Positions 30,631 to 39,974 of a stretch of 64,000 nt of DNA are shown piece by piece. The notes beneath the pieces are model-generated. The model was given only the letters and a program-made list of their open reading frames with translations, had not been told where the DNA came from and did no database searches. The DNA comes from Escherichia phage vB_Eco_F26, in the sequence record OP870145.1; one strand, 5' to 3'. The stretch's first letter is position 1; the number at the start of each line of letters is the position of its first letter. The translations under genes and the position numbers were made by a program.

Positions 30631-31133
30631 TTAAAAGTATTTTTTAAAACTCATCATAACTTTATCATCAACATCATTATCAATCTGTGCAACAAGGTAA
30701 GATGACAGTTCTACTTCTTGTGGCGCGGATTGAACATTATCAGAATTAAGATATTCACGAATCCAAGGATATGGGTGTTTAACCGGAGCATCGGTAATTG
30801 GGCATGGAAGACCACACTGTTTCATACGAGATACAGTTAAGTAATCAATAAAGCTCCACATGCTATTTGTATTTAATCCAGGAACATCGCCATCTTTAAA
30901 TAAATGAACTGCCCAATCTTTTTCTTGGCGGTTAACTTCCATGAAAATATCAACTGCTTCTTGTTCACACTCTTGAGCAATTTTAACCCATTCATCACCA
31001 TCAGTACCGGATTGAAGCTGACGAATAATATATTGAGTGCCTTTAAGGTGAAGCTGCTCATCACGTGCAATGAACTTCATAATCTTGGCATTACCTTCCA
31101 TGATTTCCATGTTCTTATGGAAGTTAAAGGTAC
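30631..31133 (-). CDS. nrdB: ribonucleotide reductase small subunit NrdB, exon 2
   Basis: Encodes ...TFNFHKNMEIMEGNAKIM... to C-terminus; joins exon 1 across a group I intron. Confidence 0.75.
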
Positions 31134-31725
31134 CGTTATGTTCGATTGAGCTCGCTAATTCTCAACCCGTTCTCTTATGAACTGCTACATATTACTATGC
31201 AGACCAGACTATATCACAATCCCAGAGGGATTCTCCCCATTTCGAGTCGCTTGACCCTACGTCCGAAGACTAGTCGTTGAACCTTGCTTTGCAATTGTCG
31301 CCGTGCCATCGTTTATATGTTGATGGTGATAAATCTTTCTTATCACAATATGGACAATTCAATTGAATTCTATTTGGATTTAATTTACATCTGTCATTAT
31401 GTTTTAGATAAAATCCAGGACCTTTACCAATGTGACCACAGAAATCACATGTGATTTCTTTTTGTGCAGGATGGGTCCCGTTCTTAACCATTTCTAATGT
31501 TTTTGCTGATGTTCTTTTCTTATGGTCTTCCATCAGAATCTTTAGGTAGGTCCGTTAGCATCTATCCAAATTTTTCTATAGTTCAATTGTGCATCCTCTT
31601 AAAAGTATAATCATATTATACTAATTAAAGGTGCAAGCAAAACCTTGGCTGCTAGTTTTCCTATAAAGGACTTTCTAGCAATTAAAGGAGTTTTCGATAA
31701 ACGTTACCGTTTAAAGGCGCATTTT
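31134..31725 (-). mobile_element. group I self-splicing intron in nrdB (boundaries +/- a few nt)
   Basis: Exon 1 ends GCGU with U.G pair to intron GCGC (P1); intron ends in G; predicted junction restores conserved FYVSFA-C-TFNF. Confidence 0.65.
31270..31533 (-). pseudogene. truncated I-TevIII-like intron ORF remnant
   Basis: 87 aa with Cys-rich zinc-finger-like motifs but no HNH catalytic region. Confidence 0.55.
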
Positions 31726-32401
31726 ACGCAAAAGATACATAAAAACGAATAGCTTCTAAGGCATTAATAACGTGCAAACAGAGGTAAAGAGATTTCATTA
31801 AAGCACGTTTAGCTTCGGCTTCTTGTTTAATAGCTCGGTTTAAACGAAAGTCGGCATCAGGAGATTCTTTAGCTAGTTCTACAAATTCTTTAGCATTTTC
31901 CCATTCACGGGTTTTAGTCAGAACATCATCATAATAACGACCGATAGATTCAGCACGTTTCATAATAGCTTCATCTAATACAATCTCATCAAATACCTTT
32001 GACGGATCAGTATAAAGATTTCGCATGATATGAGTATATGACCGACTGTGAATAGTTTCACTAAAAGTCCATGTAGCAACCCATGTATCAAGGCTTGGGT
32101 CTGAAAGCAATGGCATAAGTACAGCAGACGGCGCACGACCTTGAATACTATCAAGTAATGATTGATACTTCAGATTATTAGTAAAAATATTTTGTTGATA
32201 CTGAGGAAGCTTATTAAACTGTGCAGCATCCATCATTAAGTTAACTTCTTCGGGACGCCAGAAAAACGAGAGCGAACGTTCAATAAGTTCTTCAAATACT
32301 CGATGTCGTTGAATATCATAACGCGCAATTCCAAGACCAGACCCAAAAAACATAGGTTCTTTTAAAACATCGACCTGTTTAGTATTAAAAACTGTACTCA
32401 T
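31726..32401 (-). CDS. nrdB: ribonucleotide reductase small subunit NrdB, exon 1
   Basis: Ferritin-like diiron residues; ends ...NALEAIRFYVSFA immediately before intron. Confidence 0.8.
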
Positions 32402-33993
32402 TATTTTGTCCTGTAAACTAAATTTCCACAGTCCCAGATTCTTCTAAGACCATTTGCATAACAATTTTCTACTTCAGTTATTGTATCATCATAATTTTTA
32501 AGCTTGTTTTTAAGCTTATGTTTCATATAGCTTGAGCGGTGAAATACCTCTCCTTTATCGACGTACCAATAACATGGCTCAGAGATATGACTAAATTCCA
32601 TGACAGAGTCATAAACATTTGATAATGTACTGCACCATCTTCGATTGCCATAAGATAGACAATTAATTCCTTTTAATAATTTTGAGGCTCCTCCTACAAC
32701 ACAAATCCCTAATTTTGAACACATCCTTAAAAGTTCATCACCTGAGCTATATCTAGATTTACCGATAGAAATAATTTGAACTAACTCATTATTGTAATAA
32801 AGTCCTTTATACGTATGAGCTCCTGAGCAAAATCCTTGAAGATGATTCTTATTAATAAATTCTTTTGCCTCATCCTTATTAACAAAACGCGCTTTGCATT
32901 TTCGGGCTGGTATTCTTTCTGATAATCCTAATTTATGCTTTATAATGGATTTCCAGATCTCTCTTTTTGTATCATCAATCCATTCATTTTCGAAGATGTG
33001 AAGTAATTGAATTCCTTGTGCTTCACACATCTCTGTCTTCATCAAATGATAAGTTTCTTTAATTTTATCTGTTTCCTTTGACCCGCTAGAATGCCAATAA
33101 ATTCCATCGTATTCTATAGCCAATTTTTTCTCAGGAATGTAAATATCTAATTCATACGGAGGAATAATTTTTCTAGTTTCTACGCAATCAAATCCTAGAT
33201 CTAAAATGAATTGCTCTATAGAACTTTGAGTATAATGAACGTCAATTAGTCCTTTGGATGAAAGAGCTCTATAAGCCGTCATCCGAGAACAATTTGCTAA
33301 TTGTTGTAGTTCTTCTATAGAAATTTTGTAATTGATTTTATCTAGTATATCATGATTAATATGACCGTTATTTTTAATAGATTTTCCTATAGATGAATAT
33401 AACGATGCCTTATATTCTTCAGTCCAATTTAATTTAGTCTTCTTAGATTTTTCGCGAGATTTTCGAGAATTCAGAATATCAACTGATTTACCGTTTTCTA
33501 TAACTTTTCTCGCTTCTTTCACACTTTCTAATTGTGAATTATGCGTTACCCCATATCGTTTAATTAAAGTTTTTCTATTTTTATTTCTTGAAATTTTTTG
33601 ATGAGTTGTTCCATATTTTTCTAAAGAATTTTTGCGTTGAAGTTCAGACAAATATTTTTTATATTTTTCTTTTCCGCCAAAATTTGTATCACGGCTTTGA
33701 ATTCTCTTATCCGCGAAAAATATCCCTGAGCAGGATTTACTACATGTTGCTGGAAATACACGTTTCTTTGCTGTTTTCAGAGAAATGAAATTTCCACAAA
33801 CTGCACATTTTAGATCGTTAATGTCAATGCCTTCCATAATTTGGAACACATTGAGCTTAAAATCTATTCCATCAGTTAGAAGAGCTTTATCTTCTTCTGT
33901 TAGTCTAGATTTAAGTTTTTCTTCTCCAAATGGAAGAAACTTTCCGTTTTTGTATATATTATCAAACATAGCGTTATTCTTAGTTAACCACAT
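32401..33993 (-). CDS. composite nuclease-like protein: Zn-ribbon-like, KYGxTH repeats, HTH, Vsr-like (PD-(D/E)xK) nuclease domain and C-terminal Cys-rich domain
   Basis: 530 aa; YELDIYIPEKKLAIEYDGIYWHS...QGIQLLHIFENEW matches DUF559/Vsr-like core; stop overlaps nrdB start (TAATG). Confidence 0.65.
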   Translation of the reverse strand: MWLTKNNAMFDNIYKNGKFLPFGEEKLKSRLTEEDKALLTDGIDFKLNVFQIMEGIDINDLKCAVCGNFISLKTAKKRVFPATCSKSCSGIFFADKRIQSRDTNFGGKEKYKKYLSELQRKNSLEKYGTTHQKISRNKNRKTLIKRYGVTHNSQLESVKEARKVIENGKSVDILNSRKSREKSKKTKLNWTEEYKASLYSSIGKSIKNNGHINHDILDKINYKISIEELQQLANCSRMTAYRALSSKGLIDVHYTQSSIEQFILDLGFDCVETRKIIPPYELDIYIPEKKLAIEYDGIYWHSSGSKETDKIKETYHLMKTEMCEAQGIQLLHIFENEWIDDTKREIWKSIIKHKLGLSERIPARKCKARFVNKDEAKEFINKNHLQGFCSGAHTYKGLYYNNELVQIISIGKSRYSSGDELLRMCSKLGICVVGGASKLLKGINCLSYGNRRWCSTLSNVYDSVMEFSHISEPCYWYVDKGEVFHRSSYMKHKLKNKLKNYDDTITEVENCYANGLRRIWDCGNLVYRTK

Positions 33994-34009: not shown

Positions 34010-34999
34010 TCATAATTTACAGGATGAACAATCTTCAGCTTTTGGAGTTTCTATTTCATAATCATCAGTGCCAGAACCATCGCGGGTATTATGATAATAG
34101 AAATTTTTTCCGCCAAAATACCAAAAATACAAAAGGTCATCAATCATTATTGACATTGGAACCTTTCCTTTTGGAAAAATCTGCGGGTCATAGTATGTAT
34201 TCGCTGAAGCTGATTGACATACCCATTTCAGCATAATAGCTACCTGCGTAAGATAAGGTTTATTACCTTTCTTAGCTAATTTCCATGTATAATCATAGAG
34301 GTCTATGTTATGCTCAATATTGGGCACGACTTGATTAAAGGAGCCCTCTTTTGATTCTTTAACAGAGACTGGTCCACGTGGAGGCTCGATACCGTTTGTA
34401 CTGTTAGAAACTTGGGAAGATGACTCACATGGCATAAGTGCTGATAATGTGCTATTACGGATGCCAAAGAGCTTAAGGTCTTCCCGCAGCGCCGACCAGT
34501 CACAAACGTATTTTGGAGCTGCGATTTGGTCAATCTTTTTATTGTACCAGTCGATAGGTAATTCGCCTCGAGACCAACGAGTGTCTGAATAATATTCGCA
34601 AGGTCCTTTTTCTTTGGCGAGCTTAATGGATGCTTTAATGAGTCCATACTGTAATCTCTCAAATAGTTCATGTGTTAAATCGTTAGCATCTTCATAAGAA
34701 GCAAAGTTGCTTGCCAGCCAAGCTGCATAGTTAGTAACACCTACACCGAGGTTACGACGCTTTTTAGCTTTTTCTGCTTCAGGAACTGGATATCCTTGAT
34801 AATCCAAAAGATTATCAAGAGCGCGAACTTGAACTTCTGCCAATTCATTAATTTTATCTTGGTCTTGCCAATCGAAGTTATCCAGTACGAAGGCAGAGAG
34901 AGTACAAAGCCCCACTTCTCCCTTGTTTTCAATAACTTTTATTGTAGTATACTCATCATCTTCGTAAAATTCATCTACAAATTCATAATCAATATTCAT
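34010..34999 (-). CDS. nrdA: ribonucleotide reductase large subunit, C-terminal fragment (NrdA-b)
   Basis: 329 aa; acidic 23-aa head then ENKGEVGLCTLSAF... NSTLSALMPCESSSQ ... YYHNTRDG. Confidence 0.85.
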   Translation of the reverse strand: MNIDYEFVDEFYEDDEYTTIKVIENKGEVGLCTLSAFVLDNFDWQDQDKINELAEVQVRALDNLLDYQGYPVPEAEKAKKRRNLGVGVTNYAAWLASNFASYEDANDLTHELFERLQYGLIKASIKLAKEKGPCEYYSDTRWSRGELPIDWYNKKIDQIAAPKYVCDWSALREDLKLFGIRNSTLSALMPCESSSQVSNSTNGIEPPRGPVSVKESKEGSFNQVVPNIEHNIDLYDYTWKLAKKGNKPYLTQVAIMLKWVCQSASANTYYDPQIFPKGKVPMSIMIDDLLYFWYFGGKNFYYHNTRDGSGTDDYEIETPKAEDCSSCKL

Positions 35000-35831
35000 T
35001 TAATTCTTCTACCTTTTTTCTAGTAATTCCTAAAGCTTTAGATGCTCGATGTATTGATTGATATTCTATACCGTTTATTTTTACAGCAATTAAGTTATGG
35101 GGTTTTAATCCCTTTGGATGAGGTTTACTGACGAAAACTAAATTATCAAGCTCTGAAATCTTATCCAATTTCTTACACTTAAATCCTTTGTGATGCGCCC
35201 GTTTACCTTTACAAACGGCTGACATTGCAGATGAATTTAAATTATGCTCTTTACAAAATTCGTTAAGACCTCGATGAATTTCCTCATGACCATCCGGAAA
35301 TGTAAACACCCAAGATGTTTGAAGTCGAGATTTAACTTCTGGAGACATAGGAATACCTTTGTTCCAAGCTGGTTTGCCTTTATTATTTTCAGATACAGAA
35401 ATAGCCAATTTTCTTCTAAGCCACCCATGGCGTTTATTGGTGTTCTTTCGTTCAATATTATCTTCAGAATAAACACACATCATATTAGCGGCAAATATCA
35501 ATTTATGATTATCTGGATATATCTTTACTAATAATTGATGAGCTATGTAATGCTCTTCTGGCGTCAAATCTACCAGGTTTTCCTTTGTATCAGAACCACC
35601 AATACACAGAGGTATAATATGGTGTGATTCGGTATAGCAATCTAATTTTCTGTTCTTAGCTTTAGAAATAAGGTTATTGTAAATTTTAGAATAATCCATA
35701 ACTTTTCCTCTTGTTATGGATTATTTATTAACGGTCTGTGTACTTTATTTGCTTTGAATTATACCGCCAGGATTAGCTTCATAAAACTTAGCTACATCCG
35801 ACTTCTTAATTTTGATTAAACGGGTTTGTTG
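34930..35831 (-). mobile_element. about 0.9 kb insertion splitting nrdA (HNH gene plus new stop/start tails)
   Basis: NrdA homology ends at ...IPTNDVNS (N-part) and resumes at ENKGEVGLC (C-part); intervening DNA holds HEG. Confidence 0.55.
34989..35699 (-). CDS. Mob-type HNH homing endonuclease inserted within nrdA
   Basis: 236 aa; HHIIPLCIGGSDTKENLVDLTPEEHYIAH; paralog of ORF 6842..7534; stop overlaps NrdA-b start by 11 nt. Confidence 0.8.
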   Translation of the reverse strand: MDYSKIYNNLISKAKNRKLDCYTESHHIIPLCIGGSDTKENLVDLTPEEHYIAHQLLVKIYPDNHKLIFAANMMCVYSEDNIERKNTNKRHGWLRRKLAISVSENNKGKPAWNKGIPMSPEVKSRLQTSWVFTFPDGHEEIHRGLNEFCKEHNLNSSAMSAVCKGKRAHHKGFKCKKLDKISELDNLVFVSKPHPKGLKPHNLIAVKINGIEYQSIHRASKALGITRKKVEELNEY

Positions 35832-37178
35832 GCTATTCACATCATTTGTTGGAATAGCAATTTCACAGCACAAGTTACTCTGACGAATAGGTGCCTTTTC
35901 ACGAATAAACGGAGTATAGTTATTCGTATTATCAATGAACTGCACATAAATCCTTGCTGTTCCTGATCGTTCAGTCATGAGCAATTCAAACAGTTCACGG
36001 GCTTTAATACGCTTTTTACGAATATTAGGGTCTTTTTCTGCGGCTTCGTATAATTCACGGAAACGGTCTTGGTCTTTAAAATAAGAATAATAAAGTTCGC
36101 CACCCATTTCATGCGGACTGAACAAAGTAATGTAATCGTTCTTTCCGAATCGTTCCATCATCAAATCATTCAGCTGAACACCATAATCCATGTGACGAAT
36201 GCGGTTTTCTTCTACGCCTTTGTTATTTTTCAAAACGAGAAGATTTTCAACTTCCAAATGCCAAATAGGATAATAAGCAGTAGCAGCGCCGCCACGAATT
36301 CCACCCTGTGAACATGATTTAACAGCAGTCTGAAAATGTTTCCAAAAAGGAATAACACCAGTATGGCGTACTTCACCCATGCCAATCTTAGAACCTTCGG
36401 CACGAATCATACCAACGTTAATACCAATTCCAGCGCGTTTAGAGATATATTCAACAATTGAAGCGGAAGCCTTATTGATAGACTTTAATGAATCACCTGC
36501 CTCAATAACAACACATGAACTAAACTGTCGAGTCGGAGTACGACAACCAGCCATAATAGGAGTTGGCAATGAAATCTGTCGAGTAGATACTGCTTCATAA
36601 AAACGAATAACATGTTTTAGTCTATCAACAGGTTCATCTTGATGCAATGCCATTCCAATAGTCATAAATGCAAACTGTGGGGTTTCATAAATTTGACCGG
36701 TGGTTTTATCTTTAACTAGATATTTTTCTTTTAATTGCATCGCCCCGGAATAAGTAAATTCCATATCCCGTTCGTGCTTAATTTTTGATTCTAAAAATGT
36801 AATTTCTTCTGCTGAATATTTTGACAATAATTCAGGGTCATATTTACCTTCATTTACACAGTAAGAAATATGGTCAATAAATGAACGCGGTTCATACTGC
36901 CCATAAACATGCTTACGAAGAGCGAACATTAAACAGCGTGCAGCTACATATTGATAATCAGGTTCTTCAACCGAAATAGAATTCGCAGCAGCCTTAATGA
37001 CAATAGTCTGAATATCATCAGTTGTCATTCCATCACGGAGATAAGATTTAATATTTTCATATAATTCATAAGGATCTACTGATGTTCCCTCAGCTGCCCA
37101 AGATAAAACTTTAATAATTTTTTGTGGGTCAAAGCTCTGAGAAACACCACTACTTTTGATAACATTAATTAATTGCAT
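35745..37178 (-). CDS. nrdA: ribonucleotide reductase large subunit, N-terminal fragment (NrdA-a)
   Basis: 477 aa; ATP-cone, CRTPTRQFSSC, ...RQSNLCCEIAIPTNDVNS then basic 28-aa tail. Confidence 0.85.
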   Translation of the reverse strand: MQLINVIKSSGVSQSFDPQKIIKVLSWAAEGTSVDPYELYENIKSYLRDGMTTDDIQTIVIKAAANSISVEEPDYQYVAARCLMFALRKHVYGQYEPRSFIDHISYCVNEGKYDPELLSKYSAEEITFLESKIKHERDMEFTYSGAMQLKEKYLVKDKTTGQIYETPQFAFMTIGMALHQDEPVDRLKHVIRFYEAVSTRQISLPTPIMAGCRTPTRQFSSCVVIEAGDSLKSINKASASIVEYISKRAGIGINVGMIRAEGSKIGMGEVRHTGVIPFWKHFQTAVKSCSQGGIRGGAATAYYPIWHLEVENLLVLKNNKGVEENRIRHMDYGVQLNDLMMERFGKNDYITLFSPHEMGGELYYSYFKDQDRFRELYEAAEKDPNIRKKRIKARELFELLMTERSGTARIYVQFIDNTNNYTPFIREKAPIRQSNLCCEIAIPTNDVNSQQTRLIKIKKSDVAKFYEANPGGIIQSK

Positions 37179-37495: not shown

Positions 37496-37712
37496 ATTGT
37501 TTTTCCGTTAAAACAGTAATATCGTAGTAACAGTCAGAAGAAGTTTTAACTGTGGAAATTTTATTATCAAAATACTCACGAGTCATTTTATGAGTATAGT
37601 ATTTTTTACCATAAATGGTAATAGGCTGTTCTGGTCCTGGAACTTCTAACTCACTTGGGTTAGGAAGTGTAAAAAGAACAACGCCAGAAGTATCTTTAAA
37701 TCGTAAAATCAT
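37449..37712 (-). CDS. hypothetical protein
   Basis: 87 aa ORF. Confidence 0.4.
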
Positions 37713-38020
37713 ATTGCCATTTTCCCTTTAATTGCTGGATGCGATTCATAATTTTCAAGGATAAAATCTTTCGGTTTCATGTATTCAGTTAACCAGTAAA
37801 GCTGTGTTTCGGTGTCACAATTTCCAAACTCTATAGGCCAATCAATTTTAAGTTCACACAGTTCTTTAGGCTCACGACGTAAAATTTCTTTACATTGCTC
37901 AGTATGATTCATATAGATGTGAGTATTACCACCAGAAAATATCAAATCTCCTGGGATAAGATTACACATCTTAGCTACAATATGAACTAGTGCAGCATAT
38001 GATGCAATATTAAACGGTAG
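37709..38020 (-). CDS. td: thymidylate synthase, exon 2
   Basis: Begins [14 protein letters not shown]...; joins exon 1 to give conserved [14 protein letters not shown]. Confidence 0.85.
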
Positions 38021-39036
38021 CATTATGTTCAGATAAGGTCGTTAATCTTACCCCGGAATTATATCCAGCTACATGTCACCATGCAGAGCAGACTATATCT
38101 CCAACTTGTTAAAGCAAGTTGTCTATCGTTTCGAGTCACTTGACCCTACTCCCCAAAGGGATAGTCGTTAGGCATTTATGTAGAACCAATTCCATTTATC
38201 AGATTTTACACGATAAGTAACTAATCCAGACGAAATTTTAAAATGTCTAGCTGCATCTGCTGCACAATCAAAAATAACCCCATCACATGAAATCTTTTTA
38301 ATATTACTAGGCTTTTTACCTTTCATCTTTTCTGATATTTTAGATTTAGTTATGTCTGAATGCTTATGATTAAAGAATGAATTATTTTCACCTGAACGAT
38401 TTCTGCATTTACTGCAAGTATAAGCAGAAGTTTGTATGCGAACACCGCACTTACAAAACTTATGGGTTTCTGGATTCCAACGCCCGTTTTTACTTCCGGG
38501 TTTACTGTAAAGAGCTTTCCGACCATCAGGTCCAAGTTTAAGCATCTTAGCTTTAACAGTTTCAGAACGTTTCTTAATAATTTCTTCTTTTAATGGATGC
38601 GTAGAACATGTATCACCAAACGTTGCATCAGCAATATTGTATCCATTAATTTTAGAATTAAGCTCTTTAATCCAAAAATTTTCTCGTTCAATAATCAAAT
38701 CTTTCTCATATGGAATTTCTTCCAAAATAGAACATTCAAACACATTACCATGTTTGTTAAAAGACCTCTGAAGTTTTATAGAAGAATGGCATCCTTTTTC
38801 TAAATCTTTAAAATGCCTCTTCCATCTCTTTTCAAAATCTTTAGCACTTCCTACATATACTTTATTGTTTAAAGTATTTTTAATCTGATAAATTCCGCTT
38901 TTCATAAATACCTCTTTAAATATAGAAGTATTTATTAAAGGGCAGTCCTACAATTTAGCACGGGATTGTCTACTAGAGAGGTTCCCCGTTTAGATAGATT
39001 ACAAGTATAAGTCACCTTATACTCAGGCCTCAATTA
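38021..39036 (-). mobile_element. td group I self-splicing intron (1016 nt)
   Basis: 5' end UAAUUGAGGCCUGAGUAUAAGGUGACUUAUACUUG... after exon CUUGGGU; 3' end ...AACAUAAUG; contains I-TevI ORF. Confidence 0.85.
38168..38905 (-). CDS. I-TevI GIY-YIG homing endonuclease
   Basis: 245 aa; MKSGIYQIKN...KVYVGSAKDFEKRWKRH GIY-YIG motif; C-terminal zinc finger and HTH. Confidence 0.9.
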   Translation of the reverse strand: MKSGIYQIKNTLNNKVYVGSAKDFEKRWKRHFKDLEKGCHSSIKLQRSFNKHGNVFECSILEEIPYEKDLIIERENFWIKELNSKINGYNIADATFGDTCSTHPLKEEIIKKRSETVKAKMLKLGPDGRKALYSKPGSKNGRWNPETHKFCKCGVRIQTSAYTCSKCRNRSGENNSFFNHKHSDITKSKISEKMKGKKPSNIKKISCDGVIFDCAADAARHFKISSGLVTYRVKSDKWNWFYINA

Positions 39037-39585
39037 ACCCAAGAAAACATCTACTGATCGTTGATACCACTGAAGGTCAAGGTATCCATTACGAACATTA
39101 AATTGATAAAACATATGACAAGGCGGTAATGCCATCTGCTTGAGTTCAGCTGGATTCCATGCTGAAACGATTTGACGTCGATCAGTTGGTAATTTTTTAA
39201 TACGATCAATAGTTTCAACTAATTGATCCACACCACCGAAATCACGCCATTGTTTACCGTATATAGGACCAAGTTCACCACTATGGTATCCTAAATCTTT
39301 TGCTTGATTTTCGTAATTTTCATCCCAGACTGTTTTGCCTTGGATTAACGAATCATGCTGAATTAATCGTAAATCATTGACATTTGTGCTTCCTGATAAA
39401 AACCATATTAACTCAGAAATGCAAGCTTTCCAGGCGAGCTTTTTAGTTGTTACTGCAGGAAAACCTTTGGTTAAATCCCAACGCAATTTAGTACCGAACA
39501 AAGCAATTGTTCCTGTGCCTGTTCGGTCATCAGTTTCATAGCCATTTTCAAAAATGTCTTTAATTAAATCTTGGTATTGTTTCAT
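39037..39585 (-). CDS. td: thymidylate synthase, exon 1
   Basis: 183 codons ending ...QWYQRSVDVFLG; stop codon lies in intron. Confidence 0.85.
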
Positions 39586-39626: not shown

Positions 39627-39974
39627 TTAATATGGTTTAGCATCAAATTTTCTCTCAATTTCAGGCGTGAAATATAATTCTTTACCGCGTTTGGAAAAAC
39701 GACCAATAATATGATAATTATTCTCATCAAACGTGATATTACCAATATCCATAGCTTTCAACCAAATATCGATATTTCTATCCAGCTTTATGTCAAAATT
39801 CCAATACGGAGAACTATTACCGAAAATACTGCAAGCGGATTCAGTGAAACAACTGCTATAAATCTTATCTTTGGGAACTACTAATTGATAGACGCCTTTA
39901 ATAAACTGAGGACCCTGCCATTTTGGTTGTTTCGCGTCTTTTTCTAATAGAATAGGGTAATAATTAAAATTCAT
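39627..39974 (-). CDS. hypothetical protein between frd and td
   Basis: 115 aa ORF. Confidence 0.45.
   Translation of the reverse strand: MNFNYYPILLEKDAKQPKWQGPQFIKGVYQLVVPKDKIYSSCFTESACSIFGNSSPYWNFDIKLDRNIDIWLKAMDIGNITFDENNYHIIGRFSKRGKELYFTPEIERKFDAKPY

Follow-up and report, generated by a model that had tools for sequence, protein, structure and literature searches.

A T4-type td group I intron and its intact I-TevI gene in the thymidylate synthase gene of Escherichia phage vB_Eco_F26

The thymidylate synthase gene td of Escherichia phage vB_Eco_F26 is divided, within the 64,000-nucleotide stretch of record OP870145.1 analyzed here (the window), by a 1016-nt insert that carries an open reading frame (ORF) of its own. 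The question raised by this arrangement is whether the insert is a functional copy of the group I intron of T4 td, a copy of that intron in decay, or a free-standing endonuclease cassette that has left td in pieces, and, if it is the intron, by what route it reached this allele. As a whole, the window belongs to a Tequatrovirus genome; its identity to phages such as FL23 is ~97%, and no record matches it exactly. Judged from its sequence, the insert is almost certainly a working copy of the T4 td intron, complete with its endonuclease gene I-TevI, in this T4-like phage.

The whole td feature lies on the minus strand, which the earlier note on this DNA had left unstated, and comprises three parts.

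37709..38020, minus strand: td exon 2 (103 codons plus stop, starting LPFNIASYA), matched by Pfam PF00303
38021..39036, minus strand: td group I intron, 1016 nt, from U1 to terminal G1016, defined by the T4 match and the helices
39037..39585, minus strand: td exon 1 (thymidylate synthase, 183 codons, ending DVFLG), defined by its ORF and Pfam PF00303

Exon 1 ends in GAUGUUUUCUUGGGU (DVFLG) at 39037, the insert starts with UAAUUGAGGCCUGAGUAUAAGGUGACUUAUACUUG at 39036 and ends with AACAUAAUG at 38021, and exon 2 opens with CUACCGUUUAAUAUU (LPFNIASYA) at 38020 and reaches its stop at 37709. The division of td between DVFLG and LPFNIASYA by a 1016-nt element, as the earlier note had it, is exact to the base when read on the minus strand. 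The exons measure 549 nt (exon 1) and 312 nt (exon 2), and, because 549 nt is exactly 183 codons, the insert lies between codons. The PF00303 profile is divided between the two exons at positions 1-175 (exon 1, E 1.6e-63) and 176-266 (exon 2, E 4.6e-25); the profile is continuous across the junction, and removal of the insert therefore yields a seamless 286-aa enzyme, which aligns end to end with T4 Td. The insertion point, Gly183|Leu184, is the identical codon boundary of td in T4, and T4 also shares both exon lengths and the sequence of the junction. The intron boundaries cannot slide, because neither the first nor the last base of the intron matches the adjoining exon base, as seen against the intronless td allele of phage UoN_LDJ77_1 (LDJ77; L004).

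The resemblance of the insert to the T4 intron extends over its full length. A megablast search of T4 records aligns all 1016 nt, with E = 0 and a score of 1866 bits. M12742 and HM137666, among other T4 records, are 99.8% identical over 1016/1016 nt, NC_000866.4 is 99.7% identical, and the introns of T4, T6, RB3, LZ2, and many other T-even phages are 99.7-99.8% identical over the full length; an intron of at least 99% identity is present in 172 records of the phage collection. Most T4 records differ by two substitutions in 1016 nt, to which NC_000866.4 adds a single 1-nt indel, an extra T that is missing from other T4 records, listed at 1016 nt. The claim that the 5′ and 3′ ends resemble those of the T4 td intron, with a final G, holds at this level of identity, with G1016 at 38021, and the alignment to T4 that had been proposed as a check gives a full-length match. 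The two substitutions are the following.

38414, minus strand: substitution in the alignment to T4, C here and U in T4, at the third base of the Cys164 codon of I-TevI, silent
38071, minus strand: substitution in the alignment to T4, U966 here and C in T4, turning G953-C of the P9 stem into G953.U with pairing kept

Both substitutions are harmless, and the two occur together in no record of the phage collection. This evidence supports the identification of the element as the td group I intron of T4, harboring an intact I-TevI gene.

The RNA of the insert can be drawn as a complete group I ribozyme. The helices were written out partly after the published td structure, and each was then checked on the window sequence. 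Standard pairs alone make up P1, P2, P3, P4, P5, P6, P6a, P7, P7.1, P7.2, P8, P9, P9.1, and P9.2, which are distributed over three regions.

39022..39043, minus strand: P1, 7/7 standard pairs
38945..39021, minus strand: 5′ half of the core (P2, the 5′ strand of P3, P4, P5, and the 5′ strands of P6 and P6a; intron nt 16-92), with standard pairs
38032..38186, minus strand: 3′ half of the core (the 3′ strands of P6a and P6, P7, P7.1, P7.2, the 3′ strand of P3, P8, the 3′ strand of P7, P9, P9.1, and P9.2), with standard pairs

P1 is formed by exon positions -7..-1, CUUGGGU (39043..39037), and the internal guide sequence G9-G15, GCCUGAG (39028..39022), with a U(-1).G9 wobble at the 5′ splice site. 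At the opposite end, the intron closes with AACAUAAUG, which supplies the terminal G1016 as omega-G. The helices P3 (6 bp), P4 (5 bp), P6a (8 bp), P7 (6 bp), P8 (7 bp), and P9 (7 bp) are accompanied by the short P5 (3 bp) and P6 (2 bp), the assignment of which leans partly on the published td structure. P3 and P7, the elements whose absence the earlier note had named as evidence against a group I intron, are both fully complementary over their 6 bp. Between P7 and the 3′ strand of P3 lie two further helices, CCC/GGG (877-879/884-886) and GAGU/ACUC (886-889/901-904), named P7.1 and P7.2 after the published structure; G886 is used by both as listed, such that one pair at their junction is uncertain. 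This P7.1/P7.2 extension places the intron in subgroup IA2. The I-TevI ORF is held in the loop of P6a, and its last 20 nt constitute the 3′ strands of P6a and P6, an arrangement that has been reported for T4 (PMC3073962).

The unconstrained minimum-energy fold of the ORF-deleted RNA (-82 kcal/mol, z = -2.6) recovers P2, P3, P4, P5, P6, P6a, P8, P9, and P9.1 and predicts two hairpins at the place of P7.1/P7.2. P1, P7, and P9.2 are absent from this unconstrained fold, in which P7 cannot appear because it forms a pseudoknot with P3. All homologues found are >99% identical in the core, so there are no compensatory changes from which covariation could be read. Guanosine-dependent self-splicing has been established for the T4 td intron (PMC2988022), and the 99.8% identity between the two elements leads us to infer that the intron of the window would self-splice as well.

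A covariance-model search had also been suggested for this element, and its outcome depends on the copy that is searched. At curated gathering thresholds, Rfam gives no match in the whole window. In a permissive search of the window, the group I intron family RF00028 is the sole RNA family matched with a significant E-value, at 38069..38299 (37.3 bits vs the cut-off of 50, E 1.2e-7); the alignment is correct for the 3′ strand of P3, P8, the J8/7-P7′ motif GAUAUAGUC, and P9, with the 5′ half of the model forced into ORF sequence. The score falls below the cut-off because the ~740-nt ORF separates the two halves of the ribozyme. The 445-nt intron of phage FL18, with a 571-nt ORF deletion, scores 39.8 bits, still below 50. 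The 319-nt ORF-less intron of phage 235Ecol030PP is matched over the whole model at 73.8 bits (E 6e-19), and this copy differs from the window intron (nt 1-103 + 841-1016) by 4 mismatches in 279 core positions and by 7 over all aligned blocks. The model thus recognizes the natural ORF-deleted copy and leaves the window copy under the cut-off, and we take covariance-model support for the window intron to be given by proxy, through the 319-nt natural copy.

The ORF within the insert has the domain organization of a GIY-YIG homing endonuclease.

38168..38905, minus strand: I-TevI gene (245 codons plus stop), encoding a GIY-YIG nuclease domain, a zinc-finger linker, and a DNA-binding domain, identified by ORF, Pfam, and PDB matches

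Its translation is 100% identical to T4 NP_049849.3, in agreement with the earlier reading of the internal 245-aa ORF as an intact I-TevI. Three Pfam domains are matched above their cut-offs: PF01541 (residues 3-90, E 3e-32), PF22635 (149-179, E 1e-20), and PF20987 (192-242, E 2e-18). Among structures in the PDB, 1mk0 and 1ln0 correspond to residues 1-97 and 1i3j to residues 130-245. The sole mismatches to 1ln0 and 1mk0 are the engineered substitutions R27A and E75A; the protein of the window has the wild-type R27 and E75. From its identity to the T4 protein, the encoded enzyme is expected to be an active endonuclease.

Upstream of the I-TevI start codon, the intron holds two overlapping elements that are reminiscent of the regulatory region of the T4 intron.

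38905..38934, minus strand: ribosome-binding-site hairpin upstream of I-TevI, from the fold, with its role taken from PMC2988022 and PMC3073962
38931..38953, minus strand: I-TevI operator-like site (intron nt 84-106), 14/20 vs the homing site, with its role taken from PMC2988022

The hairpin is formed by intron nt 103-113 and 122-132, and its pairing sequesters both the AGAGG ribosome-binding site and the opening base of the AUG; the fold of 38950..38895 has an energy of -16 kcal/mol (z = -3.5), with 1/200 shuffles equally stable. Situated mostly inside the 5′ arm of this hairpin is the late-promoter-like sequence AATAAATA (38936..38929, nt 101-108), which lies one base off TATAAATA, the T4 late-promoter consensus, and which is overlapped by the operator-like site. 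The operator-like site shares 14 of 20 positions with the reconstructed homing site; nowhere else in the intron, on either strand, is a match of 13/20 reached. In T4, translation of I-TevI is blocked in early and middle transcripts, and the late transcript begins within the hairpin (PMC2988022, PMC3073962); I-TevI represses its own expression via the operator over the late promoter, and cleavage of this operator is minimal, as there is no CNNNG at the required spacing (PMC2988022). The layout of the window is the arrangement reported for T4, and these elements are predicted to function in the same way.

The near-identity of the insert to the experimentally studied T4 element allows its mechanism to be proposed. 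The 1016-nt RNA would fold as a group I ribozyme and, through two guanosine-initiated transesterifications, excise itself from the td pre-mRNA, and splicing would join GGU|CUA to give the 286-aa enzyme. In early and middle transcripts, the hairpin that buries the ribosome-binding site would block translation of I-TevI, and a late promoter within the 5′ arm of the hairpin would yield a shorter, translatable transcript; binding of I-TevI to the operator overlapping this promoter would lead to self-repression. Where an intronless phage infects the same cell, I-TevI would bind the exon junction and make a staggered cut 23/25 nt upstream, at CAACG, and repair from the intron-bearing copy would install the intron (homing).

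The cleavage motif in this scheme is found in exon 1.

39059..39063, minus strand: CAACG, an I-TevI cleavage motif (5′-CNNNG-3′) at exon positions -27..-23, from the sequence

I-TevI recognizes CNNNG and cuts 23/25 nt upstream of the insertion site (PMC2988022). The present allele is no target for I-TevI, as 1016 nt now separate CAACG from the remaining half of the recognition site. The same CAACG is found at -27..-23 in the intronless LDJ77 allele.

Compared with the intron, the exons are strongly diverged from T4. Exon 1 is 90.3% identical to T4 and 95.3% identical to the intronless LDJ77 allele at the nucleotide level, and exon 2 is ~73% identical to T4; relative to LDJ77, the exons are 95-97% identical. 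No record matches the spliced exons at 99% or more, the best being the intronless LDJ77 allele at 96.2%. At the 117 sites that differ between T4 and LDJ77, the window sides with LDJ77 at 110; it sides with T4 at three far-upstream sites and at the four nearest the intron (-6, -4, +3, and +6). The positions that delimit the T4-like exon sequence on either side of the intron are -22 and +18. A near-invariant intron in diverged exons indicates that the intron, with a few flanking bases, and the exons differ in their histories; a mismatch of this kind is known to mark the lateral transfer of an intron together with co-converted exon sequence (PMC2988022). The A at -22, a position that falls between the I-TevI cut and insertion sites, was considered as the upstream end of a T4-derived co-conversion tract and rejected, since 235Ecol030PP, L006, and L007 also have A; its presence in other intron-bearing phages means that T4 is not of the donor type at -22, and not necessarily of the donor type overall.

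The exon bases just upstream of the intron also build P1. The LDJ77-type exon end, CCUCGGU, can form only 5/7 of the P1 pairs. Bases -6 and -4 are needed for P1, and selection for splicing, besides co-conversion, could therefore keep them linked to the intron. The exon end TTCTTGGGT is present in 6/6 intron-bearing alleles vs 3/57 intronless alleles (IMG/VR), a comparison that is small, anecdotal, and not phylogenetically independent; the IMG/VR scan for intron-bearing junctions yielded 2 loci, too few for exon-linkage statistics.

Against the reading of the insert as a working intron, the copy could be in decay, impaired in splicing or dead in homing, as is the T4 nrdB intron with its defunct I-TevIII. 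Decayed td introns do exist in relatives, with ORF deletions leaving 445 nt in FL18 and 319 nt in 235Ecol030PP, and the combination of the two substitutions is, within the phage collection, peculiar to the window. The ORF in the window is nonetheless of full length and encodes a protein identical to the active T4 I-TevI; of the two substitutions, one is silent and the other exchanges G-C for G.U within the 7-bp P9, and the late-promoter-like sequence is intact here, whereas it has lost one base in FL18 and is cut by the deletion in 235Ecol030PP. Decay is thus very improbable. Less probable still, to the point of being scarcely credible, is a td gene in pieces, in which a free-standing endonuclease cassette rather than an intron separates two halves that are translated separately. 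The nrdA gene, 2 kb downstream, appears to be split in this manner, the final three bases of the intron form an ATG from which a 104-aa ORF runs over exon 2, and two separate thymidylate synthase genes are annotated in several database records. Yet the ~130 nt upstream and 150 nt downstream of the I-TevI ORF make up a complete group I core with a matching guide, this core hits RF00028, below the cut-off in the window and above it in the 319-nt copy, and splicing of the T4 intron has been demonstrated (PMC2988022). The split td annotations are gene-caller artefacts. Rejected likewise were an intein, a group II intron, and a free-standing cassette: the insert is out of frame with td, RF00028 is the one RNA family matched at a significant E-value, and the flanks of the ORF form a ribozyme.

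A further alternative accepts the same element as the working T4-type intron and concerns its history only: the intron may have arrived by ordinary homologous recombination among T-even phages infecting the same cell, or been inherited vertically while the exons were replaced piecemeal, in either case without homing triggered by I-TevI. The very short T4-like tract (-22 to +18) is in keeping with such a history, as are the need for T4-like bases at -6 and -4 in P1, which selection could retain without co-conversion, and the mosaic nature of T-even genomes, exemplified by the far-upstream T4-like patch of 3 sites. On the other side, the endonuclease is intact, homing with exon co-conversion has been documented for the td intron (PMC2988022), and the ends of the exon tracts differ between phages (between +3 and +6 in FL18; before +3 in 235Ecol030PP), which fits repeated independent transfers. 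We regard a history without homing as unlikely, although sequence alone cannot separate the homing, recombination, and vertical routes. Another scenario, likewise doubtful, is that homing occurred recently into a diverged, non-T4 td allele, with a converted tract that, relative to T4, is exceptionally short (≤21 nt upstream and ≤17 nt downstream), and that the sole bases always linked to the intron are those that build P1 (a Leu codon TTG, not CTC, CTA, or TTA). With n=6 intron-bearing alleles, this short-tract scenario is offered as a lead only. If it is true, selection for P1 pairing, and not the length of repair synthesis, would set the minimal exon footprint of the intron in natural populations.

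The closest known system to the intron described here is the T4 td intron itself (NC_000866.4 143547..144563; M12742), with which it shares the gene, the site, the 1016-nt length, and the I-TevI protein, as well as the P1 guide pairing, the operator/late-promoter arrangement, and the ribosome-binding-site hairpin. The differences from T4 are the two point substitutions, the exons (90% and ~73% identical), and an extra 115-aa ORF between frd and td. The introns of FL18 (L003 2050..2494, 445 nt) and 235Ecol030PP (L005 1050..1368, 319 nt) occupy the same site and have a near-identical core; both have lost most of the I-TevI gene and carry a damaged late-promoter-like sequence, whereas the window copy is complete. 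These two introns form a natural decay series of the td intron. More distant are the T4 nrdB (I-TevIII) and nrdD/sunY (I-TevII) introns, which are of the same IA2 class, have a looped-out endonuclease ORF, and contain middle and late promoters and a ribosome-binding-site hairpin upstream of the ORF (PMC2988022). They differ in host gene, in endonuclease, and in an unrelated loop; I-TevIII is an HNH enzyme and defunct in T4. The thyA intron of Bacillus mojavensis with I-BmoI also combines a group I intron and a GIY-YIG endonuclease in a thymidylate synthase gene, with the same conserved active-site region as the target; its insertion position is a different one, its protein is distantly related, and its host is a bacterium.

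The genes around td contain other interruptions. The description of this genome as intron/HEG-rich, made in the earlier note, applies locally, where nrdB probably has an intron of its own and a free-standing endonuclease-like gene divides nrdA. The nrdA gene is present in two pieces.

34010..37178, minus strand: nrdA, in two pieces
30631..32401, minus strand: nrdB, interrupted

The first nrdA ORF (37178..35745) corresponds to T4 NrdA residues 1-454 (448/454 identical) followed by a unique tail of 23 aa, and the second (34999..34010) has a unique leader of 27 aa and then residues 453-754. Between the pieces, which break at T4 NrdA 453/454, lies a 236-aa endonuclease-like ORF (35699..34989) that contains an I-HmuI NUMOD-like domain. 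The nrdA split gives no group I match, and the pieces leave no room for a ribozyme. By analogy, nrdA looks like a "gene in pieces" produced via a free-standing homing endonuclease, as with mobE of Aeromonas phage Aeh1; phage FL23 is annotated with the same nrdA layout. In nrdB, the exon ORFs 32401..31724 and 31110..30631 both match Ribonuc_red_sm, and the insert between them has a sub-threshold RF00028 match (31185..31425, 34 bits) and an 87-aa ORF (31533..31270). This insert probably represents the group I intron of nrdB, in which I-TevIII is defunct; in relatives, the annotation reads "defective intron-associated endonuclease".

Two further ORFs are seen in the neighborhood. A 530-aa ORF (32401..33993, minus strand) lies between the C-terminal piece of nrdA and nrdB, replacing mobE and nrdB.1 of T4, and its sole match is a weak one to REase_MTES_1575, below the cut-off (E 2e-4). 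The 115-aa ORF (39627..39974, minus strand) separates frd from td, which overlap directly in T4; it has no Pfam match and is also found in FL23 and UoN_LDJ77_1, where it is annotated as hypothetical. Within td itself, the 3′ end of exon 2 (37709..37850, minus strand), comprising the last ~140 nt (residues ~240-265), is strongly diverged from T4 (VISGLPYKFRYLSTKEQLKYVLK in T4). This diverged end is common to FL18, LDJ77, and FL23 and represents the boundary of a mosaic block inside the gene.

The td intron with I-TevI is already thoroughly known, and the present copy is nothing new in kind; its individual traits are two neutral substitutions and a diverged exon context. The value of the finding is chiefly practical, in annotation, and it advances no open question. 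The proper annotation is a single spliced minus-strand td gene, join(39585..39037, 38020..37709), whose intron contains I-TevI, instead of the two "thymidylate synthase" fragments and stray endonuclease given in many database records. With an intron that is near-invariant across 172 records (at least 99% identity) and host exons that differ by 4-27%, the locus is a clean example of the lateral spread of the td intron among T-even phages, of the kind that belongs in textbooks.
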